Below, piece after piece: positions 5,197 to 64,000 of a stretch of DNA of 64,000 nt (position 1 is its first letter; every line of letters begins with the position of its first letter). The notes beneath the pieces were generated by a model. It was not told the origin of the DNA. It worked only from the letters and a program-made list of their open reading frames with translations, and did not search any database. The translations under genes and the position numbers were made by a program. This DNA is from Candidatus Hydrogenedentota bacterium (lineage in GTDB: Bacteria; Hydrogenedentota; Hydrogenedentia; Hydrogenedentales; SLHB01), in assembly GCA_963668025.2 (NCBI GenBank), contig CAXXTH010000012.1:1537-65536 (forward strand), given 5' to 3'.

Positions 5197-5882
5197 CGAA
5201 ACACTCGCCACGGAAGGTGAAAGAAGCTCAAAAGGGCCTTGCATAAGCCGACCATGTGTTCTTTGGCGCGCCAGAAGCCCGCGATGCGATGGGCCATGAT
5301 GGGCCTTGGCGAGTTTGTTTGATCCCGTCAGCTTCATTACGCGTTTGGCCTCGAATAGCCTTCTCTTCAGAATTTGCGCCCAACGAGTATGCTGGACACG
5401 ATGATATCGGCTCATACGAGAGGCAAGGTTTATTTTCACGTAAAACCGCTAAGCCGCAAAGGTCTATCAAAAACCAACGATAGGAATATCTCAGTACAAT
5501 CCTATATCCGTATGGCGAAACCGCATGCCATTGAAACATATTGTGATTCATTCGCGTCCATTCGCGGTTAAGAAAGCTGGCCGTTTGATCGCGGCCAATC
5601 CGTGCGGCGAATCTTGCACCATTTGAGGCCGCTACCCCCCCGTCCTACCGAAAGCGCCTCATTTTTTATTCGCGAACAAACGCATATTTGCTTTGTCTCG
5701 AAAGGCCCGATTCGGTACACTGGACGTGTTTTGTTTTGCGAGCCTGTCTTTCTGGATGAAAGGGATGGCGCACAGGAGGCAAGGAGGCTTGGTTGTTGAT
5801 TTCAGATTTCTCATGGCGGATGCGCCGAATGATTTCACGCCTGGCGCCTAAAAAGGAGGTGGGGGTGTATATAGATAATCTC

Positions 5883-11261: not shown

Positions 11262-11978
11262 CTACGGCGCATAGGGCAGTGGATCGCGTTTGCCCACGGT
11301 ATCGAAGGCCTTCAGCCGCTCGACGCATGTCGGGCACGCGCCGCATGCATGTTCGCCGCCTCGGTAGCACGACCAGGTGTGGGCATAATCCACACCGAGT
11401 TGTATCCCGATATGCAGTATCTCCGCCTTTTTCGTAGATACGAACGGTGCGTGAACCGCCACGGCTTCCCGGCGGTTGAGGGCGAAGACGTGATTGAGGC
11501 GTTCGATGAACTCCGCCGTGCAGTCCCAATAGCCATATTCATCCGAAGCTTGCGCGCCATAAAACACATCGCGGATGCCTTGCGCTTCCGCACACGCGGC
11601 GGCGATGGACAACAGCATCATGTTGCGATTGGGCACATAGGTGGGCGGCTGATCGAGCTGCGCCGCATCAAGATCATCGAGAGCCGGTACGTCTTGCCCG
11701 CCCTCGATGAGGGCTGTCGCTCCTTGCAGCGCATCGCGCAAGAACGAAACATGGATGATCCTGTGGCTGGCTGCTCCCACCGCCGCCGCCTGCCACCGGG
11801 CGCATTCGAGTTCCCTCGCATGCCGCTGGCCGTAATCATAGCTGATGGCATGGACGGGCGACCGGCCCAAATTCCGCGCCACATAGTGCAACAGCGTCGT
11901 GGAATCCATGCCTCCGCTCAACAGCACCAATGCGGGAGAATGATTACAAGAAAGGTTTTCCAAAGGAGCAGTATTCAT
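11262..11978 (-). CDS. queC: 7-cyano-7-deazaguanine (preQ0) synthase
   Basis: PP-loop LVLLSGGMDSTT, then YDYGQRH, YVPNRNMMLLSIAA and the C-terminal zinc cluster WSCYRGGEHACGACPTCVERLKAF. Composition is GC-rich like the backbone. Confidence 0.9.
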   Translation of the reverse strand: MNTAPLENLSCNHSPALVLLSGGMDSTTLLHYVARNLGRSPVHAISYDYGQRHARELECARWQAAAVGAASHRIIHVSFLRDALQGATALIEGGQDVPALDDLDAAQLDQPPTYVPNRNMMLLSIAAACAEAQGIRDVFYGAQASDEYGYWDCTAEFIERLNHVFALNRREAVAVHAPFVSTKKAEILHIGIQLGVDYAHTWSCYRGGEHACGACPTCVERLKAFDTVGKRDPLPYAP

Positions 11979-12724
11979 TTTTTGGGAATTGCTTTTCGTG
12001 TTTTTATTAAGGTTGTTTCTCTTATTTTATTGAACTCGTCATTGCTTTCAAATACGGAATCAACAAGCCGATTGCATCCAGACGCAAGCCTGGCAAGCGC
12101 TTTAAGCTGTTCCTCGCATGCGATGCTTTCGGTTTTGTGTGGATAATTTATGGTATGGTCTACTTCACCCCACACTTCTTCCATTAAGGTTCGAACTTGA
12201 ATCTCACATGTATATCGGCTCGTGCTATTGGCCTGTACAACATAATGGACACTGGTATACATGGATGGGCTTTCCTGCACCGAAATACCCCAGGATTTAT
12301 ATTTGTCTTTTGTTTCATCATCCCATGAACGTACAAAAGGAGGTTCGAAAAAAAGATATTTTTCTTCTTCAATCGTTTGTTCAAGCGCTTGATGAATGTA
12401 GGGGAATTGCGTGGTGTGTAAATGAAGGAGGCGAATTCCTACTAGGTCATTGATTTTCTCGAAGAACGTGTCCGGTGTGATATCAAAGCTTTCACCCGAA
12501 TCCAGCGCTTTGAGGATTTTTCGCTTCAGCTTATCTCTGAGGTGGCCAGGCTCCTTGATTCGAAACTTCACTGAGTGTATATGGGCCATTAACTGCTTAT
12601 TATTCATGAGCGAATCATGGATGACCGACAAAAAGCGGCCAAGATCTTCTTTTTTCTTTACAAATATGTCAACGAGTTCATCGATGACTCTAGTTTGGGA
12701 TGCGCTTATCTGAGAGCCTGCCAT
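11975..12724 (-). CDS. Single-domain RelA/SpoT-family nucleotide pyrophosphokinase (small-alarmone-synthetase / toxSAS-like architecture)
   Basis: Synthetase motifs are present in order: FRIKEPGHLRDKLKRK, DLVGIRLL, YTSVHYV, EIQVRTLMEEVWGEVDH..NY. There is no HD hydrolase domain. The gene is AT-rich, and its stop overlaps the queC start (ATGA at 11975-11978). Confidence 0.85.
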   Translation of the reverse strand: MAGSQISASQTRVIDELVDIFVKKKEDLGRFLSVIHDSLMNNKQLMAHIHSVKFRIKEPGHLRDKLKRKILKALDSGESFDITPDTFFEKINDLVGIRLLHLHTTQFPYIHQALEQTIEEEKYLFFEPPFVRSWDDETKDKYKSWGISVQESPSMYTSVHYVVQANSTSRYTCEIQVRTLMEEVWGEVDHTINYPHKTESIACEEQLKALARLASGCNRLVDSVFESNDEFNKIRETTLIKTRKAIPKK

Positions 12725-12730
12725 CTCTCT

Positions 12731-13726
12731 CTATACCCTTCTAACCAGTGTTTCCGCAATGCCCCGAAACGTTGTCTTTGCCTGATCAAGCTGAGTTTTG
12801 TCCCCCTCGACTTTCCATAGCGGCAAACCTGCAAGTTGGGCCTTATTCGCAAGAGGAAATTCTTTAACATCACCGAGCTTGAAATCTTTCAAGGCGCCTC
12901 TTACTAGGGCCATATCAATATCTTGCAAACGCGTGACGACATCGCTGGAAATGCTTCTTTCCATTCTTGCCATCATATGACTGGAATTCCTGGCTGGCTT
13001 GTTGGCGTATACGCGAATCCTTTGCGGAATGTATCCTATGAATACCGGTTTTCCGGGTAACATTTCTACTCCGTCAGGAGCGAGTTTAACGAAGGTGTCC
13101 CAATCCGTTATCCATTTTGCTAGAGTATGCCCTAGTGTCTGCAACGCCCGTAGTGAAAACAAATCACATGCCATTGGAATAATAAAATAATCACAATCCA
13201 ACAAGACTACTTTCGTCAATGGCCCAATATTGGGGCCGGAATCATAGAAAACGTAATCCGCATTTCTGCTTCTAGCGGCTTCATTCACCACACGGCTCAA
13301 GGCGGATATGTTTTTGAAACCTCGGAGCTTTCGCCGAGCGCAATCTAACCAAGAATCATACAGATCCTCCTCGAAATTGGTGAGTTGAATATCTCCCGGC
13401 AGCAGAAAAACGCCTGCCTCTGAAAGCTCTATTGAAGGGATTCTTCGCACATCGCTTAAGCCATCGGTTAATGGTTTTACGCCAGACCAAAGCGTGGCTC
13501 CATTTACCCCGTCGCTCTCATCCAAGTACTTATCCACCACGGAGTCTTCTATGAAGTATGAAGTGAGATTACATTGAGGATCCGCATCCACTAGCAGCAC
13601 CTTCTTGCCAAGTTCGGCTAAGGCGCAAGCGATATTCGCCGTCAGCGTAGTCTTTCCAACGCCACCTTTATGATTAAAAATAGCGATACGTTTTGCGGGG
13701 AAACGTAGATTTGAGATATCACTCAT
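12731..13726 (-). CDS. ParA/MinD-superfamily ATPase with extended C-terminal region
   Basis: Deviant Walker A IFNHKGGVGKTTLT, then LLVDADPQCNLT and DYFIIPMACDLFSLRAL. Start taken at MSDISNL (13726), which overlaps the upstream gene by 8 nt. The ORF opens at 13840. Confidence 0.85.
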   Translation of the reverse strand: MSDISNLRFPAKRIAIFNHKGGVGKTTLTANIACALAELGKKVLLVDADPQCNLTSYFIEDSVVDKYLDESDGVNGATLWSGVKPLTDGLSDVRRIPSIELSEAGVFLLPGDIQLTNFEEDLYDSWLDCARRKLRGFKNISALSRVVNEAARSRNADYVFYDSGPNIGPLTKVVLLDCDYFIIPMACDLFSLRALQTLGHTLAKWITDWDTFVKLAPDGVEMLPGKPVFIGYIPQRIRVYANKPARNSSHMMARMERSISSDVVTRLQDIDMALVRGALKDFKLGDVKEFPLANKAQLAGLPLWKVEGDKTQLDQAKTTFRGIAETLVRRV

Positions 13727-14312
13727 TTGTTTTCCTGGATGCATTGCCTGTTTTTTTACGTAACGTTTTTCGAGGCCGCGCGTTTTGCATCGCAGCTTTT
13801 GCTGCATCTCTATCAGGGAGGGAGCGTACAAAAAGCTCACCCGCTGCGCTCAACTGCTTCTGGCCTTCTGGCGCTGCCACTAGATACCCCATTTTCATGG
13901 CATTATTCACAGAATTGGATGGATTAGAAAGTTTTTGCTGCGCCGCTTCCGTATTTAGCTCACTTATCTCGAATGTTTTGAAATAAGGAATATCCCGATA
14001 ATGGGTCAGATAGAAAGCAAGGCATGCCACTCTTTCCACATCAGTTTGGGGATTCTTATCGAGCAAGAATGATTTTGGCGATAATGTTCTCTCCATACTG
14101 AAATCGCCTCGAGGATTATCTTTGGCTATATACAATCCATTAGCGCGCACGGGCGCGTCTTTATCTGGCCCCGAATCTATTCCTAATAGTATGGAAACGC
14201 TTTTTAGCACCCGCTTTTGTTCCAGGTTCGAAAGGGAGGATAGTACATCATAGACTGTATCGTGTGCAGTTTTAATGCTATCACTGCCGGCGAACTCTGA
14301 ATTGGCTGACAT
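13719..14312 (-). CDS. Hypothetical protein (197 aa), possible winged-helix DNA-binding C-terminal half with basic tail
   Basis: Clean AT-rich ORF at the head of the cassette. The segment ...RVACLAFYLTHYRDIPYFKTFEISELNTEAAQQKLSNPSNSVNNAMKMGYLV... resembles wHTH proteins, and the tail is Lys/Arg-rich (PRKTLRKKTGNASRKTNE). I recognise no family. Confidence 0.6.
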   Translation of the reverse strand: MSANSEFAGSDSIKTAHDTVYDVLSSLSNLEQKRVLKSVSILLGIDSGPDKDAPVRANGLYIAKDNPRGDFSMERTLSPKSFLLDKNPQTDVERVACLAFYLTHYRDIPYFKTFEISELNTEAAQQKLSNPSNSVNNAMKMGYLVAAPEGQKQLSAAGELFVRSLPDRDAAKAAMQNARPRKTLRKKTGNASRKTNE

Positions 14313-16069: not shown

Positions 16070-16119
16070 CGTAGCATGGCCGTCCCGGCCATGCGCATGG
16101 GCGGGACGCCCATGCTACG
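16070..16119. repeat. REP-like double-hairpin palindrome, copy 1
   Basis: CGTAGCATGGCCGTCCCGGCCATGCGCATGGGCGGGACGCCCATGCTACG. It contains two internal hairpins (CATGGCCG-TCC-CGGCCATG and CATGGGCG-GGA-CGCCCATG) inside an outer GTAG/CTAC stem. Related copies lie at 32594-32645 and 60407-60459. Confidence 0.7.
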
Positions 16120-16282
16120 GGATCTCACCAAATAGGTGAAATGGAGCATTCTTTGTATCCGGCGATCGAGGGCGATAAGCTCGCTTTACATATTCATGGT
16201 ATAATCACAATCATTGTTGGGGGGCTGGTCCGTGTCGAGAACCGGCCTCCTGTTGTGTTTATGGATAGGCGTCTAAAACACG

Positions 16283-20479: not shown

Positions 20480-22007
20480 GTAACACTTTAGCCGACTGAA
20501 GTGTTTTCCGGTGGCAGGGGAGGCAATTGGCCGGTGTTGAGGTAGTGGACCAGGGCGTTGCAGACGGTGCAGACGGGGTTTTGCCCGCGTTTTTTCAAAG
20601 TAAAGAAGACGCTCATGAGCACCGCTTGTATGGCGGCTCCTTGGTCGCTGCGGTTGCAGTAACTGTTTTTGCGCAGGATAACGGCAGGACGGATGGAGCG
20701 TTCCGCCAAGTTGTTGTCGAAGGGAACATCTGATTGGCCGAGAAAAGTGAAGAGTTCATCCTGGTGTCGGCGCAGCCTTTTTATGAGGCGCTTGGCGTTG
20801 GCGTCCTCCCAGGGCGTATCGCACAAGTCCCGCAAGCGCCGGGCGAAGCGCGCGCGGCGCGAGTCGTACGCCTCCGGTTCGAGCTCGCCGCGCCGCCGCC
20901 ACAGCCGGATGGCGTCGGCAATCAGGCGGCGCAGCTTTTTGGCGAAGGCGGGCCAGGCCGGGCTGGGCGATTTGTATTTCTCCACGTGCTCGAGTTCGCG
21001 CAACAAATGCACGAGGCACTTCTGCCGGGCGGCGCACGCCACGGCGTTGTACGCGGCCCAGAAGTCGGCCACCAGCGTTCCGGCGAATTCCCGCGTGAAG
21101 AACTGCTGGAGCGCCGGACTCCCCCGCGAATGGTCGATCAGGAAAAAGCTCAGCCCTTTGGTGGCGAAACACCACAGCCATCGGGTCTTGCCATTCACGC
21201 GCCAGCCGGTCTCGTCGGCGTTGAGCACCGCCGAGTCCAGCGCTTCCTGGTGAATGGCCTCGTACCAAGGCAGGAGAATCTCCGCCAGCCTGCGCCACAT
21301 GTGCAGCAGCCCGCCCGGCGTGACCTGGAAAAGCAGGTGGAAATCGAAGACCTCCACGATTTGCGAAAGCGTGTTGCCCAACACATAGTGCAGCCACGCG
21401 CTGAGGACCAGCACCCGGTTGCCCAGGGTCGCGCCCGGCAAGGCCGCCGCCACAACCGGCTCGACTTTCTTCTTGCATCGCGGACACCAGTCGCGGTGAA
21501 TGGTATGCTCGGTGATTTCCGGACGGATGCCTTCGGGTATGTCTTCGGTGTAGCGCGTGCGGGTCTCCGCGCGGCGGTCCAGCGGCCCGCCGCAGTCGGG
21601 ACACACCTTGGTGCGGTGTGTTTCACGCCGGTCGATACGTTCGGGCGGCACGCGCCGGCTGCCGGGGTGGCCCATCTTGCGTCCCGGCTTTTTCTTGCCG
21701 CGCACAGGCGTCTGGGGTTTCCCGTAAACTGGCTGCATGCCCGAAGGGGTGGAGGGCGTTTGGTGGGAAGTGAACGCCGCCTCGGCCTGCTGCTCCGACA
21801 GCAGCTTGGATTGCGCCAACAGGGCAAACACCACGGCATCTTCGCCCAATGCGTAGATCGCTCGGGCTTGCTCCTCCGAGAGCAGCGGTCCCAATGGAAT
21901 GCCACTTATTGCCGTCGCCATGGCGTCTTGGCCCAAAACCACAACATCTTGTAACTATATTATACCGAAACGCTACTTATAGTTGCGCCAGACGGCTAAA
22001 GTGTTAC
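20480..22007 (-). mobile_element. IS66-family insertion sequence (single-ORF, ISBst12-like organisation), 1528 bp
   Basis: Terminal inverted repeats begin with GTAA: GTAACACTTTAGCCGACTG at 20480 and its complement CAGACGGCTAAAGTGTTAC ending at 22007 (15/15 identical at the tips). A perfect 8-bp target-site duplication GAATTTCT lies at 20472-20479 and 22008-22015. Confidence 0.9.
20488..21942 (-). CDS. IS66-family transposase (TnpC-type DDE with zinc finger)
   Basis: CPDCGGPL...DWCPRCKKKV zinc-finger region, then NADETGWRVNGKTRWLWCF..., LVADFWAAYN and QKCLVHLLRE, typical of IS66 TnpC. The ATG at 21921 is the likelier start. Confidence 0.9.
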   Translation of the reverse strand: MVLGQDAMATAISGIPLGPLLSEEQARAIYALGEDAVVFALLAQSKLLSEQQAEAAFTSHQTPSTPSGMQPVYGKPQTPVRGKKKPGRKMGHPGSRRVPPERIDRRETHRTKVCPDCGGPLDRRAETRTRYTEDIPEGIRPEITEHTIHRDWCPRCKKKVEPVVAAALPGATLGNRVLVLSAWLHYVLGNTLSQIVEVFDFHLLFQVTPGGLLHMWRRLAEILLPWYEAIHQEALDSAVLNADETGWRVNGKTRWLWCFATKGLSFFLIDHSRGSPALQQFFTREFAGTLVADFWAAYNAVACAARQKCLVHLLRELEHVEKYKSPSPAWPAFAKKLRRLIADAIRLWRRRGELEPEAYDSRRARFARRLRDLCDTPWEDANAKRLIKRLRRHQDELFTFLGQSDVPFDNNLAERSIRPAVILRKNSYCNRSDQGAAIQAVLMSVFFTLKKRGQNPVCTVCNALVHYLNTGQLPPLPPENTSVG

Positions 22008-22871
22008 GAATTTCTTTTCCGTGACTCCAGGCCGGGCGGGTTCACTGGCCCCATACGCATAACTCATATCCCCACCCATTCCGGGGGCATTGGGCGCGAG
22101 CTTGCTCACATCGCCCGCCACGAGTTTGACCTTGGCGTTCTCGAAGGATAGCCCACTTTGGTTATCAAGCGTCATCCAGCCCACGAGCTGGACGGTGTCT
22201 CCGGTTTCGGGCGACACTAGGTTGTAACTCGCCTCCCAGCCCATACCGCCGGTGACATATGACAGTTCGGCGTCGAGTGGCCCCGCCTGATCCGTTTCCA
22301 ATTTCCAGGCAAGCGTAGGCTTGAGGATGGAATCATCAGGGAGCTGGGGAAAAAGAGGCCTTCCCGGCAGGCCAAATTGGAGTTTCCCCTCGCTTGTTTC
22401 GATGATTGTCTGGTCCGAAGGCCCGCCTGGCATGTTCATTCTAGCCGACTGGGCCATGTAGTAGTCGTTGCCATACCGCCGCATCGCGGTGGCATCGTGC
22501 CATACGTATCCGCTACGTACGATTTTGCCAGGGATGACCGTCTGGCCTTCAGGCCGTTCAATCAAGAAATCAATGGTTTGCCCCTCAAAATAGGACAGCA
22601 GCAAACCTTGAGAAACCGGGTCCGCCCGGTAATTCTGTTCGAGGATGCGCAACGTCCGCTGCCCCGCCGGATCGCGCAGGATGACCGAGTCCGGCTCGAG
22701 TTGCGCCGTGAGGTTGTTGTACGAAATCGTGTTTTCTCCGGCTTCAAGCGCCAGGGGGATCATATCGCGGACAACGGCGAAATTACTTGAATAGATGGTA
22801 AGGGCGGGTTCCGAATCCGCATAGAAGGAAAACAAAAGCATACCCATGGCGCATAGCATTGCTCTCATCAC
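22008..22871 (-). pseudogene. DUF4139-family protein, N-terminal part with signal peptide (gene split by IS66 insertion)
   Basis: Signal-like MMRAMLCAMGMLLFSFYA. ...YNLVSPETGDTVQLVGWMTLDNQSGLSFENAKVKLVAGDV... resembles the DUF4139/DUF4140 family. The ORF runs into the IS end (…EKKFVTL*). Confidence 0.75.
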
Positions 22872-23215
22872 GGCATCCTCCTTTTGATTGTGAGTTTAAT
22901 CTATTCCATCATATGGGCATAATCTTAGAACAACTATATAATTAGTTTCAATGCGAAAAAAAGTTCCAGGATGGGTGGAGGATATCCTGCTTTTCAACGA
23001 ATATGCCGGACAGGATGATTTTGGCTCATACGAGAGGGTTTCTCTTGAATTCTATTGCACGTCGCGAAGAATGCAACCGTTAAAAGCGCGACATACCTAC
23101 AATAAAAAAACTTCGCCACACTTTAGCCATCTGGAACAAAAACATTGGGTTGATTTTTTAAACCACGAATAGATGCGAATAAACGCGAATTCATGACAAA
23201 CCTCTGTTAACGGCT

Positions 23216-23560
23216 GTGCGAGCAATATGGCTGGAAGTTCATGATTATGCTCACGGACGACCAATTGGCCACCGTGAACGAGGAATTCGAGAGCCTCGCG
23301 CCGTGAGGCCCGAAAACCAGCTTACGTGGCGTTGCGGCAGCAAGAAGGAAATCCACCAGCAGTTTCGCTGGTTCAACGACATCCCCTACCGCGACTCCGA
23401 GCGGCGGGAACACATCCCGTCCGTGCTCGAATGCGTGGACACCCGCCCGGACGCAGAAGGCATGATGAAGAAAACCAAGTTCAAATGGGTGACCAACGTG
23501 CCCGTATCCGCGCACAATGCGGCCGCCTTGGCCAATGAAGGAGGACGCTCCTCCACGTCC
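23216..23560 (+). pseudogene. Internal fragment of a DDE transposase (IS4-like superfamily, family uncertain), frameshifted and truncated
   Basis: YGWKFMIMLTDDQLATVNEEFESL is followed, after a frame change, by ...QQFRWFNDIPYRDSERREHIPSVLECVDTRPDAEGMMKKTKFKWVTNVPVSAHNAAALANEGGR. There is no start and no catalytic C-terminus. Confidence 0.5.
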
Positions 23561-23722
23561 CGCCCCCCCGTTCACCGGCTTCTACGCATAGCCCGAGCTC
23601 CTCCTGTTGCCCGTCGACCTCACTATTCCCGTCTAACCCGCATCTCCCCAACGCCTGACGCTGGATCCTCGCTATTCTTCACCGATGAGGAACGTTTGGG
23701 CCTGCGTCAAAAAAGTGGTTTT

Positions 23723-23850
23723 TCATCCGGTTCTTTGTTCCCAATACTCATCGAAGCGATTGGATTGAATAAGGCATCGCAACGCGGTAATGGCGTTTGC
23801 GCCTCGGACGGTCCATTCCATACCGGAGTGCTTCATACGCTGGCCAACGA
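23723..23850 (-). pseudogene. C-terminal relic of a second transposase
   Basis: The minus-strand peptide GQRMKHSGMEWTVRGANAITALRCLIQSNRFDEYWEQR* resembles the conserved C-terminal tail of several IS transposase families. The rest of the gene is absent. Confidence 0.35.
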
Positions 23851-23932
23851 TCGTCCTGCACGGCATAAAATAACTCAATTCTACGATTGCAATATAGATA
23901 TTTGGTATTATATTATCTTGCTACGCAAGATT

Positions 23933-25528
23933 TTAAGCGATTGGATTCAGTTTCGCCCATGAAGCAACAGCTTGCTCCAAAGTATCAAGTTGTCCATTGA
24001 TACCACGGATCCAGTGTTTATATTCGTCCCGAGATAAACATGAAGCCGCATAAATAAACGCTCTGCGCATCCAAGGAGTCATATCGCAAATAGTCTGTTT
24101 CCGTTCTCTAAACCAAAAATCCTTCTTACTGCGACCCATTGCCAGCATGATCTCTCGCCTTGAGAAATCATCAATAGCATCATTGTAGAGCCTGATATAA
24201 TGGTCTTCAGAATCCCAGTTCCCATCCAGCGCAAATGGTCTCAATACATACATTCGAGAGTACTCAAGATGAGAGACAGTTGAAGTCTTATCGTTGTATA
24301 TACTGATGATACGTTCACCAAAGACTTTCTTCTGTTCCGATGTTAACGTATTCTGTTTGAGTAAATACTCGATTGTCTCACGAATAACAGGTACGAATTT
24401 TGAAAAATTATCGAATATATAGGTGGCAATATCTACATCTCCGAGTTGTCCAAGCCGCCTAAGCAGGAATTTCAGTAGTGATAAGTCAGGCTCTTCTTCT
24501 TTAAGGTGCTCTACTAATATAGATTCAAGGTTCAGATTATCAAGGGCTCTTTGATGCTCCGGCTGCAATGAATCATAGTCTATGTCTTCATATGGGTTTT
24601 CGATACCTATTTGATCTAGCAAATCAAAAAAACGTTCTGTTAAAGTGTCTAGCTCACGTGTTTCATTTTCTCGGAGATAAATCGTCTTGAACGCTTCGAC
24701 CGTAATGATTTTTGTCTTGTTCTGCTGAAGAGTTAATCCATGATTATTGTAAAGCACTCTTGCAAGTAGAGTTAGATATTTGTATGCATCTCCTTCAGAA
24801 TTGCAGAAAATTCGAAAATCATCTGAATAGCGAAGGTATTTAGCATTTTCTGAAAGCAACGACTGGTCAACATCAGACAAACACAGTTCAGCGATCAAAC
24901 GCGATGCAGATGAGCCAACAGGTATACCATAGGAGTATGATCCAGCCCAGTGATTGATAAGTGTTCTTAGGGCAACTGCATGCATATGCCCACTTCCCAA
25001 AGCGCGGTCAAGAGCGTTTTCAATGCGATGGGTATAAAGTCGAGGGTAAAAATCTGCAATGTCGGCAATTACTACGTGAGAGAAACTATGCTCCTCACAT
25101 CTCTTCAAAGATGCTTGTTGAAAACTATGAAATGAATAATGCTCGGAAAACATTCGCCCATTTTGCTCTGGTTGAAAACGAAAGGAATGAACAATGTCAT
25201 CAATTGTTGGTATTCTCTCTAGCTCAAGCTCTTGTCCGACTTCATATACCAAGGCTGTAAATACCAAGAAATCTAGTGGATCTAGCTGCGTAGAAATCCG
25301 AAATCCAAAGCGATGCTTAGGAACTAAACACCGTCGGAATGCTCTGATCTCCCAATTTAATATATCAGTGTTTTTTATGTAGGTCTTTACTGCGTCCCAG
25401 TCTTCCCTTATTGCATCAAATTCAAAAACTTCAGGGAAAATGTCTGTGTCATGCCACGATAGAGCATGTATCAAAGACCAGTCTAGGGAAGCATCCTTCA
25501 GAGTCAAAGGCATGAGTTTTCCCCTCAA
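23933..25528 (-). CDS. Stand-alone reverse transcriptase with helical C-terminal extension (Abi/UG, defence-associated RT-like)
   Basis: RT motifs in order: LVPKHRFGFRISTQLDPLD, VIADIADFYPRLYTH, GIPVGSSASRLIAELCL, YLRYSDDFRIF (YxDD), LTLQQNKTKI. A helical tail of about 230 aa follows. There is no maturase, endonuclease or Cas domain. The gene is AT-rich relative to its flanks. Confidence 0.85.
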   Translation of the reverse strand: MRGKLMPLTLKDASLDWSLIHALSWHDTDIFPEVFEFDAIREDWDAVKTYIKNTDILNWEIRAFRRCLVPKHRFGFRISTQLDPLDFLVFTALVYEVGQELELERIPTIDDIVHSFRFQPEQNGRMFSEHYSFHSFQQASLKRCEEHSFSHVVIADIADFYPRLYTHRIENALDRALGSGHMHAVALRTLINHWAGSYSYGIPVGSSASRLIAELCLSDVDQSLLSENAKYLRYSDDFRIFCNSEGDAYKYLTLLARVLYNNHGLTLQQNKTKIITVEAFKTIYLRENETRELDTLTERFFDLLDQIGIENPYEDIDYDSLQPEHQRALDNLNLESILVEHLKEEEPDLSLLKFLLRRLGQLGDVDIATYIFDNFSKFVPVIRETIEYLLKQNTLTSEQKKVFGERIISIYNDKTSTVSHLEYSRMYVLRPFALDGNWDSEDHYIRLYNDAIDDFSRREIMLAMGRSKKDFWFRERKQTICDMTPWMRRAFIYAASCLSRDEYKHWIRGINGQLDTLEQAVASWAKLNPIA

Positions 25529-26108
25529 TTGGATATTAACCGCACATATAGAAACTGTAATTCTGAGCTAAACTATTTGCATATTCTTCTTGGCAAATCA
25601 AATCGCAATATTTATAGCACCTGTCGAGGCGCTAAGATATACACGAATTCTGGACAGGAATCAGGATATGAACGCAACGGAAAATGCGTTTGGCTCAGTA
25701 AAGTGTTGAAAAAATGTTCAGAACAATCTGTTCTTGCACTGCGTGCGCCATACGGGTTCAACCACATGGCTTCCAAGCTTTCCTGATGCTGCAATACGGA
25801 AAGTAAGTCTCGGCGATTTTTCCATGATCAAAACATGGGGCCGCCTATGTAATCTGCACAAGACGTAGCGTGTTTTCATGTTTTCATCTGGTCTTATGAT
25901 AAGCATCTTATGCCGTACGATCTGCAGCCATAAGCAATCGGCTTTTATCGGCCATTTTTTGCAGCGAGCGATTGTATGAAATATCTGGATTACGGGAGCT
26001 ATCTGGAGTCCGCAATCCGTGTTTGACGAGCATTAAAGGCATGTGATAAACTCGCCGGTCTATCGCAGGGATAGATCTGTCTGAATACGAAAACTGCAGG
26101 CGTACACG

Positions 26109-27473
26109 ATGTTTGAATCGCTGAGCAAGAGATTAGAGCGCACATTCCGGAATATTCGCGGCCAGGGCAAGCTGACCGAGAAAAATATGAAGGACAGCCT
26201 TCAGGAGATCCGTGTCGCCCTGCTCGAGGCCGATGTTAATTATAAGGTCGTTAAGCAGTTCATTACGGATGTGCAGGAAGCCGCCCTCGGGCGCGAGGTG
26301 CTCGAGAGCATCCAGCCTGGACAGATGATCGTCAAGATCGTCCATGACGAGTTGATCAAAATCATGGGCAGCGAGAGCGCTCCGCTCGATATGTGCGCCA
26401 CGCCGCCTACGATCATTATGATGGTGGGCCTGCAAGGCCAAGGCAAAACGACCAGTGCGGGCAAATTGGCCCTGCATTTGAAGAAAAAAGGGCATCGCCC
26501 GCTACTGGTGGGCGCGGATGTATACCGTCCCGCGGCTATCAAGCAGTTGGAAGTGGTGGCGCGCCAGGCGGAGTCGGAATTTTTCAGCTTGGGCGAGCAG
26601 GCGGACCCGGTTGATACATGCTTGATGGCGCGCGGCGAAGCGCAATTGCGCAATTGCGATGTCATTATTCTGGACACGGCGGGCCGCTTGCATGTGGACG
26701 AGCAGATGATGGGCGAAGTGCGCCGCATTCATACGCAGGTCCATCCGAATGAGATTTTGTTCGTGGCCAACGCCATGACGGGCCAGGACGCCGTGAATTC
26801 GGCCAAGCAGTTCCACCAGGCGCTGCCGTTGTCGGGCGTCATCTTGACGCAGCTCGATGGCGATGCGCGTGGCGGTGCGGCGATAAGTTTGACGTATGTG
26901 ACCCAGTGCCCCATCAAGTTCGTGGGCACGGGCGAAAAGCTGGATGCGCTGGATATATTTCATCCCCGGCGCATGGCCGACCAAATCCTGGGGATGGGCG
27001 ACATCGTGTCGCTTGTCGAAAAGGCCCAGGAGGTGGTGGACCGGGATAAGGCCATCGAGTTCCAACAGAAGGCCCGCAAGGCTTCTTGGGATCTCGAAGA
27101 CTTTTTACAGCAGATGCAGCAAATTAAGAAGATGGGCTCGTTCAGCGACATTCTGGGCAAGATCCCCGGCATGAGCAAGCTGATGGGGTCGGAAGAGATC
27201 GACACGAGCGAGTTGAAGTATTATGAAGCCATTATCCGGTCGATGACCATGAAAGAACGGCGCAATCCGAAAATCCTCAACGGGAGCCGCCGCCTGCGCA
27301 TCGCGGATGGCAGCGGCACGCAAGTGCAGGATGTGAACCGGCTGCTCAAGGATTTTGACCAGACGCGTAAGATGATGAAGCAAATGATGAAAGGCAAAGC
27401 CTTTAAACAAATGGCGGCGAAAGGCAAGATGCCTAAGGGCATGGGCCCCATGGGGCCGTTCCCGGGCATGTAG
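26109..27473 (+). CDS. ffh: Signal recognition particle protein
   Basis: NG domain GLQGQGKTTSAGKLA, DTAGRLH, LTQLDGDARGGAA, and a Met-rich M domain at the C-terminus. Confidence 0.95.
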   Translation: MFESLSKRLERTFRNIRGQGKLTEKNMKDSLQEIRVALLEADVNYKVVKQFITDVQEAALGREVLESIQPGQMIVKIVHDELIKIMGSESAPLDMCATPPTIIMMVGLQGQGKTTSAGKLALHLKKKGHRPLLVGADVYRPAAIKQLEVVARQAESEFFSLGEQADPVDTCLMARGEAQLRNCDVIILDTAGRLHVDEQMMGEVRRIHTQVHPNEILFVANAMTGQDAVNSAKQFHQALPLSGVILTQLDGDARGGAAISLTYVTQCPIKFVGTGEKLDALDIFHPRRMADQILGMGDIVSLVEKAQEVVDRDKAIEFQQKARKASWDLEDFLQQMQQIKKMGSFSDILGKIPGMSKLMGSEEIDTSELKYYEAIIRSMTMKERRNPKILNGSRRLRIADGSGTQVQDVNRLLKDFDQTRKMMKQMMKGKAFKQMAAKGKMPKGMGPMGPFPGM

Positions 27474-32593: not shown

Positions 32594-32645
32594 CCGTGGC
32601 GTGGGCGTCCCGGCCATGCATATGGGCAGGACGGCCACGCCACGG
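32594..32645. repeat. REP-like double-hairpin palindrome, copy 2
   Basis: CCGTGGCGTGGGCGTCCCGGCCATGCATATGGGCAGGACGGCCACGCCACGG. It has the same architecture as 16070-16119. Confidence 0.65.
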
Positions 32646-60196: not shown

Positions 60197-60217
60197 CTGT
60201 ATAAAAAACGCTCTCAT

Positions 60218-60283
60218 CGTCATTCCCGCGCAGGCGGGAATCCAGGGCTACTCGCATGGGGCCATGCTTTCGCGGGAATGACG
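60218..60283. repeat. Palindromic element with ATTCCC-N8-GGGAAT core (copy 1)
   Basis: The outer 13-bp inverted repeat is CGTCATTCCCGCG (60218-60230) / CGCGGGAATGACG (60271-60283). The inner core is ATTCCCGCGCAGGCGGGAAT (60222-60241). A second copy lies at 60525-60592. Confidence 0.75.
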
Positions 60284-60406
60284 GTGGAGAGCAATAGACG
60301 CAGAGGCGCGGAGTACGCGGAGAGGACATAAAGTACAGAACAATAGCCACAAAATCCACAAGAGGCATCAAATGCTTCTTGAACACCAGATAGGAAGGAT
60401 GAGAAC

Positions 60407-60459
60407 CCGTAGCATGGGCGTCCCGCCCATACGCATGGCCGGGACGGCCATGGTGGCGG
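60407..60459. repeat. REP-like double-hairpin palindrome, copy 3
   Basis: CCGTAGCATGGGCGTCCCGCCCATACGCATGGCCGGGACGGCCATGGTGGCGG. Its 3' end merges into the duplicated leuC 3' end. Confidence 0.65.
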
Positions 60460-60489: not shown

Positions 60490-60524
60490 GAAAATGCAAT
60501 TTACGGCATAAAAAACGGCCTCAA

Positions 60525-60592
60525 CCGTCATTCCCGCGCAGGCGGGAATCCAGGGCGATTTACACGAAGCCATGTTTTCATGGGAATGACGG
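60525..60592. repeat. Palindromic element with ATTCCC-N8-GGGAAT core (copy 2)
   Basis: CCGTCATTCCC (60525-60535) pairs with GGGAATGACGG (60582-60592). The core ATTCCCGCGCAGGCGGGAAT lies at 60530-60549. Confidence 0.75.
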
Positions 60593-60692
60593 TGGAGAGT
60601 ATCATACGCAAGGCGAGGAAAAGGCAACAGATGAAGTCAGAAGTAGGGACGGTATTGTGAGACACATTGGATAATGCATGGAGTAGTTTGAA

Positions 60693-61617: not shown

Positions 61618-61660
61618 ATCACCTAGGTAAGGTGATTCTTACGCTAGAAGGGTACGGCCC

Positions 61661-61975
61661 ATGACGCGCGAAGAGTTATTGCTTGCCGTGAAGGAGGCCG
61701 TGCAGGCGGTGTCGCCTGGCGCGTCGGTGATCCTGTTCGGCTCGCGCGCACGGGGCGACGCCCAGCCGGATTCGGATTGGGATTTTCTGGTGCTGACCGA
61801 TGAACCACTAGGCTGGAGGAAAGAAAGAGAACTCCTGCGCGGTATGTGGCGTGTGGAATGGCAATGCGGTGAAGTGCTTAATCCTATTGTCCATTCACGT
61901 GCGGAATGGCAGTCGCCCATACGTGAAGGCTCTCCATTCCTGCAGGCCGTGAACCGGGAAGGGATTCCCGTATGA
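61661..61975 (+). CDS. Minimal nucleotidyltransferase (MNT) domain protein, partner of the downstream HEPN protein
   Basis: VILFGSRARGDAQPDSDWDFLVLTDE. It overlaps the HEPN gene by 4 nt. Confidence 0.85.
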   Translation: MTREELLLAVKEAVQAVSPGASVILFGSRARGDAQPDSDWDFLVLTDEPLGWRKERELLRGMWRVEWQCGEVLNPIVHSRAEWQSPIREGSPFLQAVNREGIPV

Positions 61976-62370
61976 ACGATTCTACACAGGAGATTGTCCT
62001 GTTTCGCCTTCGAGCGGCGCGGGAAACGCTGGTAGAAGCTCGCGCCATGTTGGACGGAGGGCATCCCCGCGGATGCATTAACCGGCTCTATTATGCATGC
62101 TTTTACGCCGTGAGCGCATTGTTATTGGCAAAAGGGCTTTCCTCCTCCAAGCATACGGGGGTTCGCGCCTTTTTTAATAAAGAGTTCATCCATACCGGTG
62201 TGTTTTCTGCTTCTATTGGAGACACATACAACACGTTGTTTGTAAAACGTATGAGTAGCGATTATGAAGATTTTTTCACGCCTAATAGCCAGGAAGTATC
62301 TGAGTTGTTCTCAGAAGCCGGGCAGCTTGTAGATACGATAGACGGATATTTGCAGCGAAACACGGAGTAA
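61972..62370 (+). CDS. HEPN-domain protein (PF05168-like)
   Basis: ARAMLDGGHPRGCINRLYYACFYAVSALLLAKGL...KRMSSDYEDF matches the classic HEPN/MNT pair layout. Confidence 0.8.
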   Translation: MNDSTQEIVLFRLRAARETLVEARAMLDGGHPRGCINRLYYACFYAVSALLLAKGLSSSKHTGVRAFFNKEFIHTGVFSASIGDTYNTLFVKRMSSDYEDFFTPNSQEVSELFSEAGQLVDTIDGYLQRNTE

Positions 62371-62375
62371 TTCCA

Positions 62376-62690
62376 ATGACGCGCGAGGAGTTGTTACAAG
62401 CCGTGAAGGAAGCCGTGCAGGCGGCGGCGCCGGACGCGTCGGTGATCCTATTCGGTTCGCGCGCACGGGGCGACGCCCAGCCGGACTCGGATTGGGATTT
62501 TCTGGTATTGACCGATGAGCCGCTGAGCGAAGCATCGCAGGAAAGTGTGAACCGGCGTATATGGGAATTGGGTTGGGACGAAGGATTGACACTATCCACC
62601 CTGTTCTATACCCGTTCTCAATGGCAGGAACCTCGGCGGCGGGCCGCAGGATTCCACCGCGCCGTGGAACGCGAGGGAATCTTGTTATGA
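62376..62690 (+). CDS. Second MNT-domain nucleotidyltransferase (orphan paralog)
   Basis: MTREELLQAVKEAVQAAAPDASVILFGSRARGDAQPDSDWDFLVLTDEPL. The 5' half is nearly identical at the DNA level to 61661..61975, and the 3' half is diverged. Confidence 0.85.
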   Translation: MTREELLQAVKEAVQAAAPDASVILFGSRARGDAQPDSDWDFLVLTDEPLSEASQESVNRRIWELGWDEGLTLSTLFYTRSQWQEPRRRAAGFHRAVEREGILL

Positions 62691-62714
62691 TGGAAGGTTC
62701 AGTTGATAATCGGA

Positions 62715-62811
62715 CATAGTGGTTATTGTGCTCGTCGTGGTTGAGTCTCAACAAACCACAACGGACACAATGTTGGCGTTTTTTCGTGTATTTGGTGTAT
62801 TTCGTGGTTCG
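62715..62811. repeat. Word-triplet hairpin repeat (three arms)
   Basis: CATAGTGGTTATTGTGCTCGTCGTGGTTGAG / AAACCACAACGGACACAATG / TTTTCGTGTATTTGGTGTATTTCGTGGTTCG. Confidence 0.65.
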
Positions 62812-62849
62812 TATTTTTGAGGACAAACGCCAAACATAGGAGTGAGCCC

Positions 62850-63125
62850 ATGGGATGCTGTTTTGGATTGTTGCTGGCGGCGGGGATTCCGCGCATCGCG
62901 TTGATTCTGGTGTGGCTGTCGGGAAAGAGCGCGTCTCTCTTTGATACGCGCCTGTGGCCGTTGCTCGGGTTCTTCTTCCTGCCCTACACCACGTGCGGCT
63001 ATTGTATCGCGGAATATTACTTTAAAGGCCCCTCGGCGGGCTGGGGCCTTGCGGTGGTGATCATCGGCGTGCTACTCGATTTGGGCAGCCACGGCGGCGG
63101 CGCACGGCAAATGCAGCGGCGATGA
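62850..63125 (+). CDS. Small hypothetical membrane protein
   Basis: AGGAG RBS. The product has three predicted hydrophobic segments (MGCCFGLLLAAGIPRIALILVWL..., LWPLLGFFFLPY..., WGLAVVIIGVLLDL). Confidence 0.5.
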   Translation: MGCCFGLLLAAGIPRIALILVWLSGKSASLFDTRLWPLLGFFFLPYTTCGYCIAEYYFKGPSAGWGLAVVIIGVLLDLGSHGGGARQMQRR

Positions 63126-63130
63126 TGAAT

Positions 63131-63365
63131 GTATTTTTAACACAAAGGCACAAAGACACAAGGAGGTCTCTCACCGCTTGTAGTTTGCCCATAATTCTTT
63201 GTGCCTTAGTGTCTTTGTGTTGAGTTTTTAATGAGTACAAAATCGCGAAAGCGTTGTCGAATAGATCGTGATGTTCTAACAAAGAGAAGAAAACACATGG
63301 AATCCTTCAAGACGTTGACTAGCGTTGTGGAGCCGCTGGACCGGATGGATGTGGATACGGACCAG
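63131..63365 (+). repeat. Duplicated leuD leader plus 5' coding end (copy 1 of a ~235-bp direct repeat; copy 2 at 63767-64000)
   Basis: The same hairpin repeat is present in both copies (AACACAAAGGCACAAAGACACAAGGAGG...CTTTGTGCCTTAGTGTCTTTGTGTT), along with the same RBS region and first 23 codons. The offset is 636 bp. Confidence 0.8.
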
Positions 63366-63380
63366 TCTAGAACGGAATGA
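63297..63380 (+). pseudogene. Truncated duplicate of the leuD 5' end
   Basis: MESFKTLTSVVEPLDRMDVDTDQ|SRTE* compares with the true start MEPFKTLTGVVAPLDRMNVDTDQ at 63933. By my alignment there are 5 mismatches in the last 84 aligned nt. Confidence 0.75.
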
Positions 63381-63396
63381 TTGGAGGTGAAGAGAT

Positions 63397-63705
63397 ATGC
63401 GCGAAGTACGCTATGTTGCTAAGAATAATCGCATTCTTGTCATTTCCTTGGCATTTACATTCTGCTGGATGATTTATGCCATGTCCACCTTTTATACAGC
63501 TAAGATGGTTTGGATTTTACCCGGATTAGGCTTTATCCTAAGCGGTTTTGTTTTGTGCGGAGTAAGTGTATTGGCGGACTTGAGGCTGTTTTTTGAAAGA
63601 GAAGTAAAACTAAAAACCAGGCTGCTAGTCGGAAGCGTATGCCTTTTGGTGGTTTTATATTCTTGTTATGCTTTTCTTTCTGTGCTTAGGCAGCCAACGT
63701 TTTGA
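63397..63705 (+). CDS. Small hypothetical membrane protein (102 aa)
   Basis: GGAGG RBS. There are three hydrophobic segments. The gene is AT-richer than its flanks and sits between the two leuD-5' repeat copies. Confidence 0.5.
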   Translation: MREVRYVAKNNRILVISLAFTFCWMIYAMSTFYTAKMVWILPGLGFILSGFVLCGVSVLADLRLFFEREVKLKTRLLVGSVCLLVVLYSCYAFLSVLRQPTF

Positions 63706-63932
63706 TAAGGATTATGCGGAAATATACAACCGACAACGCCGGGAAGATAGGTTTACTTAGACGTTTATTTTTTAACACAAAGGCACAAAGACACAAGGAG
63801 GTCTCTCGCCGCTTGTGGTTTGGCCTTAATTCTTTGTGTCTTAGTATCTTTGTGTTGGAATTTTTGTAAGTAAAAATCGCAGAAACGTTATCGAATAGAT
63901 CGTAATGGCCCATAACAAGGAGAAGAAAACAC

Positions 63933-64000
63933 ATGGAACCCTTCAAGACGTTGACTGGCGTTGTGGCGCCGCTGGACCGGATGAATGTGGATACGGACCA
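63933..64000 (+). CDS. leuD: 3-isopropylmalate dehydratase small subunit (5' end; continues beyond the window)
   Basis: MEPFKTLTGVVAPLDRMNVDTDQ is the canonical LeuD N-terminus (…LD..NVDTDQIIP). Confidence 0.8.
   Translation, partial: MEPFKTLTGVVAPLDRMNVDTD

Follow-up and report, generated by a model that had tools for sequence, protein, structure and literature searches.

A solitary UG7/DRT8-type reverse transcriptase gene on horizontally acquired, AT-rich DNA in a Hydrogenedentota contig

This study concerns a reverse transcriptase (RT) gene which lies upstream of the housekeeping gene ffh in a stretch of 64,000 nucleotides (nt) from a Candidatus Hydrogenedentota bacterium (contig CAXXTH010000012.1). 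The whole stretch is here called the window, its coordinates are used throughout, and the RT gene is on the minus strand. An initial annotation of this DNA had described an open reading frame (ORF) at 23933..25528 with a YSDD box; this frame of 531 amino acids (aa), counted from a TTG, is present as reported, and all short sequence words quoted for the region were found again at their positions. More than 1000 RT homologs are nearly all 526 aa long and start with MxLxL. Because the lengths and the N-termini of these homologs agree, we take the ATG at 25511-25513 as the true start, so that the gene proper spans 23933-25513 (526 aa plus stop). An identical 526-aa protein is recorded on a public contig beside the same ffh operon. 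The gene and its parts are as follows.

23933..25513, minus strand: UG7/DRT8-type RT gene, solitary variant (from the ORF, the start in the homolog set and the PADLOC Drt8 match)
25521-25526, minus strand: Shine-Dalgarno-like GAGGGG, 7 nt before the ATG (read from the sequence)
25433..25450, minus strand: DTDIFP, codons 22-27, part of the N-terminal loop motif DTDIFPxxFE (kept in at least 95% of 74 UG7 RTs)
24671..25345, minus strand: RT fingers/palm core, about aa 57-281 (Pfam RVT_1 at residues 144-276)
24818..24829, minus strand: catalytic YSDD box, aa 229-232 (from the translation)
23936..24655, minus strand: all-helical C-terminal domain, aa 287-526, alphaRep/HEAT-like (from the AlphaFold2 model, Foldseek and the Class 1 definition in PMC9226505)

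Pfam assigned RVT_1 alone to the RT protein and found no maturase, endonuclease or Cas1 domain, in agreement with the initial annotation. The core residues G70, R72, Q76, P79, D151, S194, G196, P198, G200, R228, D231, D232 and K266 are conserved among the 74 family members compared, with R228, D231 and D232 kept in at least 95% of them. In the DTDIFPxxFE loop (aa 22-31, 25421-25450) T23 occurs in 100% of the 74 proteins, and the AlphaFold2 model places the DTDIFP segment as coil between helices 7-20 and 30-37. At 81 of the 85 columns which are at least 80% conserved in the family the window RT agrees with the consensus; it departs from it by G21H, Y111F, L373F and P494S, and other members offer precedents for three of these four. 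Twelve further changes are private in comparison to 11 close homologs, most of them conservative. The gene is full length and its catalytic site is intact.

The protein matches the PADLOC Drt8 (UG7) profile with 527 bits (E 1.7e-158), residues 10-526 being aligned to profile positions 2-490 of 493. The runner-up RT_UG21 reaches 162 bits and is followed by UG19, UG32, UG23, Drt4, Drt6, AbiP2 and AbiK, while UG2 and UG28 are outside the 25 best PADLOC families. On the same Drt8 model a Citrobacter RT which has a nuclease partner scores 551 bits (L075; L numbers are our labels for homolog loci). Every NCBIfam model remained below its cutoff: Drt4 (NF041749) with 79.4 bits versus 450, Drt2 with 34.6 versus 390, the group II intron RT TIGR04416 with 58.7 versus 300 and retron St85 with 39.7 versus 235. 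No repeats of at least 40 nt, such as the template and variable repeats of a diversity-generating retroelement, touch the RT gene or its upstream gap.

DRT8 corresponds to UG7, a Class 1 group of the UG/Abi RTs (Mestre et al. 2022, PMC9226505). Two variants of UG7, congruent with its phylogeny, have been described: one carries a PD-(D/E)XK nuclease (150 of 385) and the other is solitary (165 of 385; the denominator is printed once as 358) (PMC9226505). The group is enriched in defence islands, and the tested DRT8, which is nuclease-linked, guards E. coli against T5 and requires the active sites of both RT and nuclease (PMC9226505). Judged from its sequence, the window RT is a member of the UG7/DRT8 group and not an unclassified RT or a new class. 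The initial annotation had regarded the class as undeterminable or possibly new; this does not hold, as the group is named and its solitary variant is already in PMC9226505. The nearest RT relative is only 70% identical. New is therefore an added member from a poorly sampled candidate phylum, the family and its solitary form being already catalogued.

In order to describe the genetic neighbourhood, 79 genomic loci with RT relatives at 28-69% identity were fetched and all flanking ORFs were clustered. In these loci no neighbour gene recurs beside any RT of at least 31% identity, and mobility genes such as recombinases or integrases do not recur beside the RT either. Just four loci, all at 28-30% identity (L074, L075, L078, L080), have an ORF of about 240 aa which overlaps the stop of the RT; the one of L075, the sole one of the four scanned, is a PADLOC RTasPDDEXK protein (E 6.9e-69). 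A neighbour-joining tree of 74 RTs unites the four nuclease-linked RTs in one clade and places the window RT deep within a solitary clade, together with beta- and gamma-proteobacterial and cyanobacterial sequences. Searches by tblastn and with a profile of the four partner proteins, run on the window and on six-frame pieces of 22800-26200, found no PD-(D/E)XK remnant. Because there is no recurrent neighbour and no nuclease remnant, and because the RT falls into the solitary clade, we assign the window gene to the described solitary UG7 variant.

Between solitary sister loci dN/dS is 0.04-0.12 in six of seven computable pairs and 0.30 in the closest pair, so this clade is under strong purifying selection. 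Since the RTs of at least 31% identity lack a partner across many phyla and keep about 526 aa under such selection, the partner-less state is ancestral and functional in the clade. The window RT has in common with the described solitary variant the full-length PADLOC Drt8 match, the order of N-terminal region, RT core and alphaRep, and the lack of an associated gene; nothing substantial differs, only the Hydrogenedentota-like host phylum is unusual. With canonical DRT8 it shares the UG group, the catalytic YxDD and the family-wide invariant motifs. However, it is just 28-30% identical to the nuclease-linked RTs, and the nuclease gene which overlaps the RT stop in DRT8 is absent here.

Several solitary RT copies elsewhere are decayed: the copy in L020 is frameshifted or split, that in L033 (Leptolyngbya) is interrupted by about 1 kb, that in L037 has an internal stop, and in two Nostoc strains (L068, L069) the copies match the first ~300 residues only. 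These cases suggest that the solitary RT is often gained and lost. The only relatives on viral contigs (L084-L089, from IMG/VR) have 29-32% identity, the range in which the distant branches with the nuclease-linked RTs fall.

The AlphaFold2 model of the protein, built from a 22-sequence alignment, is confident (pLDDT 88, pTM 0.87). It consists of the RT core and then of helices only (residues 287-522), which agrees with the helical C-terminal extension noted initially, now put at about 240 aa. With this model Foldseek found in the PDB, in this order, DRT6 (TM-score 0.63/0.66), DRT4, AbiA, Abi-P2, UG15 and AbiK, with about 450-630 aligned columns; group II intron RTs rank after those, and the DRT9 protein, which depends on a non-coding RNA (ncRNA), appears only at ranks 34 and 48. 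A sequence search of the PDB gave UG15/DRT4 (1.7e-17), Abi-P2 (1.9e-12) and AbiK (5.6e-9), all of them matching in the RT core only (profile positions 113-291). Class 1 UG/Abi proteins are defined as an RT fused to a C-terminal alpha-helical HEAT-like repeat (alphaRep) domain (PMC9226505), and in the model the window RT has this fold.

DRT4 (UG15) and DRT6 (UG12) are the best full-length structural matches and are, as here, single-gene systems of RT plus alphaRep. Their sequence likeness to the window RT is confined to the RT core, however, and the invariant priming residue Tyr125 of DRT4 is without an invariant counterpart in UG7. AbiK and Abi-P2 have the same overall fold class (Foldseek E 1e-10 to 1e-11) and no RNA partner, but they are only 14-16% identical to the window RT, belong to another UG/Abi group, and their protein priming residue has no identifiable match here.

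The surroundings of the gene are made up of the following features.

25514..26108, no strand: divergent intergenic region between the RT gene and ffh, 595 nt (ffh starts at 26109)
23905..23921, minus strand: 7-bp hairpin ATCTTGC-TAC-GCAAGAT, 12 nt past the RT stop (from the sequence and the fold of 23783-23932)
23723..23860, minus strand: 5'-truncated ISKra4-family transposase relic, the last ~35 codons and stop (NCBIfam NF033572, E 1.4e-11, profile positions 387-421 of 422)

The RT gene has a G+C content (GC) of 0.40, compared to 0.59 in its flanks and 0.55 in the whole window, and forms the lowest-GC 2 kb of the window; the AT-rich islet of the initial annotation is therefore real. On its left side the border is sharp: GC is 0.29 in 23861-23932, the 72 nt past the RT stop, versus 0.58 in 23216-23860. 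The homology of the ISKra4 relic covers about 23756-23860, with the stop codon at 23723-23725, and the point of its truncation is also where the low-GC tract sets in, i.e. the left islet border 72 nt past the RT stop. The missing ~386 N-terminal ISKra4 codons are not found beyond the other side of the islet, so this was not a simple insertion into the insertion sequence (IS). Transposase relics had originally been proposed for 23216-23850. The ISKra4 end bears this out for the last part, whereas 23216-23722 resembles nothing in Pfam, NCBIfam or the plasmid set, and the same is true for 22872-23215. The hairpin after the RT stop is possibly a weak terminator; a terminator scan made no call at 23905-23921.

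Further from the RT gene, at 20488-22871 on the minus strand, an IS66-family transposase (DDE_Tnp_IS66, E 2.8e-42) directly adjoins a 291-aa ORF. This ORF has weak, sub-threshold DUF4140/DUF4139 matches and looks truncated. As the IS66 transposase, the truncated ORF and the ISKra4 relic occur together, the region upstream of ffh can be described as an IS junkyard. A 9-bp inverted repeat (23860-23868 and 25908-25916) was considered as terminus of a mobile element and rejected. The repeat exists, but the reservation that it could be chance was justified: 23600-26200 contains 12 pairs of this kind, itself included, at an expectation of about 12.9, and in 6.4% of shuffles one or more such pairs link the two border zones.

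The ffh protein is 80-83% identical to its homologs in metagenome-assembled genomes of Candidatus Hydrogenedentes/Hydrogenedentota. Three related contigs keep the order ffh-rpsP-KH-rimM-trmD-rplS, have 130-190 nt upstream of ffh followed by other upstream genes, and carry no RT. This empty-site comparison is one of gene order only, the ffh-proximal non-coding DNA not being alignable at 80-83% ffh identity. Because the three contigs keep the ffh operon without RT, the RT represents a lineage-specific insertion at a synteny breakpoint. AT-richness compared with the host is common to the family as a whole: in 95% of 76 loci the flanks exceed the RT in GC, and the difference, 9 points in the mean, is 19 points in the window. 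We conclude that the RT was horizontally acquired on AT-rich DNA, and the initial description as a defence-associated RT of UG/Abi type without adjacent effector gene on such DNA is confirmed. Neither phage records nor IMG/VR contain close relatives, the clade of the window RT not being found there, and plasmids gave distant matches only (at most 33% identity).

Taking these results together, we consider it likely that the locus is a single-gene, horizontally acquired and partner-less Class 1 RT of the UG7/DRT8 group, which would work independently of a template by analogy to its relatives, and that the DNA upstream is not an ncRNA gene. The Class 1 RTs characterised to date synthesise DNA without a nucleic-acid template, while Class 2 RTs copy an ncRNA (PMC13174585); DRT4, for example, is a single gene making random single-stranded DNA primed on Tyr125 (PMC12783706). 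By analogy with AbiK, Abi-P2 and DRT4, the protein would oligomerise and would polymerise DNA without nucleic-acid template, and the primer would probably be a side chain of the protein itself. Upon phage infection the DNA product would accumulate or be stabilised and would then halt the infection, with an outcome of the abortive-infection type. The 595 nt upstream would be an ordinary divergent promoter/leader region, composed of the RT leader, co-transferred junk and the ffh promoter. Of the two mechanisms offered initially, fold and classification thus favour the protein-primed, template-independent one known from AbiK and Abi-P2, and the ncRNA-templated one is left unsupported.

Some points weigh against this interpretation. 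A 2026 review gives the DRT8 mechanism as "not yet established" (PMC13213688), and because no DRT8 mechanism is published the untemplated, protein-primed step is an analogy only. The column equivalent to Tyr125 of DRT4 contains Y in 36, W in 31 and F in 7 of the 74 UG7 RTs, with F in the window, and since it varies in this way a tyrosine priming site is not assignable. The nuclease active site is needed in the tested DRT8 (PMC9226505), and for solitary UG7 no experimental test is reported in the published work surveyed. PADLOC found no defence genes in the neighbourhood, so the locus itself lends no defence-island support. A scan for sigma-70 promoters on the RT strand upstream of the gene gave none that is convincing, although the sigma-70 type may not be that of the host.

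The residues around the putative priming site deserve a closer description. In the loop 126-128, to which Tyr125 of DRT4 aligns, the close clade has Tyr128, while the window RT has Phe128 with Tyr126 two residues earlier. In the HSYRF motif S110 is found in 97% of the 74 RTs, and Tyr111 of the 11 close homologs is Phe in the window. That F128 and F111 are inactivating Tyr-to-Phe changes was considered and rejected, because column 128 is Y, W or F, and column 111 is Y in 85% of the sequences and otherwise F, S or H. Outside the RT motifs only Thr23 and Ser110 are invariant hydroxyl residues. As there is no invariant tyrosine at the DRT4-equivalent site, Thr23 in the DTDIFPxxFE loop or Ser110 are possible candidates for non-tyrosine priming. 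It is conceivable, though we consider it rather doubtful, that the solitary UG7 clade is a stand-alone effector primed in this manner, whose DNA product itself acts as toxin or decoy. If true, a stand-alone effector with a priming unlike that of AbiK, DRT4 and DRT3b would explain why the PD-(D/E)XK nuclease is dispensable.

The region upstream of the RT gene was analysed in particular because the initial annotation had proposed a module of RT plus ncRNA. From 25514 to about 25950 the DNA is of low GC (0.42), and therefore about 435 nt of non-coding DNA probably arrived with the RT. That no convincing ORF precedes ffh is correct insofar as none that is conserved or recognisable was found in 25514-26108; the gap itself now measures 595 nt. 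Rfam gave no match at E up to 1 over 22800-26300, including group II intron and retron RNAs. The predicted folding of the 595-nt gap is at the level of dinucleotide shuffles (z -0.56 for the RT-sense strand, -1.28 for the opposite strand), and eight sub-windows of 150 nt range from z -1.8 to +0.5. The hairpin-forming words pointed out earlier are present, but they do not exceed the shuffles: three perfect hairpins of at least 6 bp versus 1.2 +/- 1.3 (p = 0.15).

The homolog loci give the same picture. Comparison of the window flanks with 78 homolog loci and their 998 ORFs by nhmmer, blastn, tblastx and blastx yielded chance-level matches only, none of them positionally equivalent. How far the next ORF upstream lies from the RT differs widely between loci (median 256 nt, interquartile range 122-496 nt, 31% below 150 nt). 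Folding z-scores of the 150 nt preceding the RT, computed for 20 loci, scatter around zero with one outlier. We regard the sister loci as the most telling evidence against an ncRNA. Where their RTs are 85-96% identical, colinear nucleotide homology begins between -180 and +3 relative to the ATG, in four pairs at most 14 nt from it (L006/L012, L002/L005, L003/L004, L039/L040), and it stops within about 150 nt past the RT stop. In L006/L012, where homology begins near the ATG, dS already amounts to about 1.1; the DNA upstream therefore has the character of neutral or replaced sequence. The conserved unit is essentially the ORF alone.

The outlier among the 20 loci is L011 from Pseudanabaena, where positions 5851-6000 fold with -64.5 kcal/mol (z -3.98). 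As the sole such case it is probably a local repeat or terminator and not a family feature.

Three other explanations of the locus have to be weighed. According to the first, the ~580 nt upstream would encode a structured ncRNA which serves the RT as scaffold and template, like in DRT2 and DRT9. The large gap, its low-GC part, which probably arrived with the gene, and the few small hairpins would fit this. Moreover, ncRNAs might exist in further UG groups, and those of UG2 are poorly conserved between subgroups (PMC9226505). Documented ncRNAs are those of DRT2, DRT9, DRT3 (where the Class 2 RT Drt3a copies the RNA) and UG27 (PMC13213688, PMC13174585, PMC9226505). Like the window locus, DRT2 (UG2) and DRT9 (UG28) combine one protein gene with non-coding upstream DNA. 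However, both are Class 2 RTs without alphaRep and have a constant upstream region with a conserved, highly expressed ncRNA, and none of these was found here; it was such a constant region which led to the discovery of the UG2 and UG28 ncRNAs (PMC9226505). The empty Rfam result, folding and hairpin counts at shuffle level, variable gaps without shared similarity, sister homology beginning near the ATG, the Class 1 fold, the low Drt2 score and the structural distance to DRT9 all speak against it. By comparison, the RT-plus-ncRNA proposal appears largely refuted, and we think it very improbable. In addition, the RT is placed in a named family, and the partner required by the tested members of this family is a PD-(D/E)XK protein and not an RNA; by both refuting conditions which the initial annotation had itself named, family placement and unconserved upstream regions of homologs, the proposal fails.

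The second explanation is that of an orphan half-system which needs a nuclease, absent or supplied in trans, so that the gene would be an inert passenger left by an IS-mediated rearrangement. The requirement for the nuclease active site in the tested DRT8 and the decayed copies of the family are in line with it, as is the truncated ISKra4 only 72 nt past the stop, from which it follows that the downstream DNA was rearranged. It is nevertheless difficult to reconcile with a whole partner-less clade that keeps its length under strong purifying selection in many phyla, with the lack of any nuclease remnant in the window and with the intact ORF and its retained catalytic residues, so we consider it unlikely. 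The third is a non-defence role, e.g. in maintaining or transferring a mobile element, for an RT which merely resembles defence RTs. The gene does sit among IS fragments and not among defence genes, and the AT-richness in 95% of the loci is typical of mobile DNA. Yet no mobility gene accompanies the RT repeatedly in the 79 loci, close relatives are missing from phage records and IMG/VR with only distant matches on plasmids, and UG7 is enriched in defence islands, with one member protecting against T5 (PMC9226505). A non-defence role seems as improbable to us as the ncRNA, and we therefore stay with the partner-less Class 1 RT.

The locus alone matters little, as it adds one more member to a catalogued family and removes a false RT-plus-ncRNA lead. 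The value lies at the family level, DRT8 being among the few DRT types without a published mechanism. As it has more than 1000 homologs, is under strong purifying selection and conserves essentially the ORF alone, solitary UG7 would be a clean single-gene system. It allows one to ask which DNA a Class 1 RT makes and how the product defends without a nuclease. Defence without nuclease is a question for the whole UG7 family and not peculiar to the window locus.

Elsewhere in the window several features were observed which are independent of the RT gene. A second low-GC patch (22872-23215, GC 0.39) lies beyond the IS relic and contains one copy of a 43-nt direct repeat (22995-23037) whose other copy, 88% identical, is at 5381-5423. 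The repeat translates to the peptide NEYAG[QH]DD[FI]GSYER; among the five differences three follow one another at 6-nt intervals, as third-codon positions would, and neither copy matches a protein family. A second low-GC module (11975-14312, minus strand, GC 0.42-0.46) comprises a 249-aa nucleotidyltransferase with RelA/SpoT domain, an unknown 197-aa ORF and a 369-aa ParA-like AAA_31 ATPase, with a weak PADLOC PDC-M28B match. This may be another acquired module of toxin-like or mobile nature. GC-rich palindromic repeats of 51 nt, similar to repetitive extragenic palindromic elements, occur in both orientations at 16070-16127, 32595-32645 and 60400-60458, and a pair of 100-nt repeats with an internal inverted repeat is found at 60203-60302 and 60511-60610. 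Finally, 61658-64000 contains direct repeats of 88-152 nt which are 88-94% identical and spaced 635-715 nt apart, suggesting that short genes are duplicated in tandem where the window ends.

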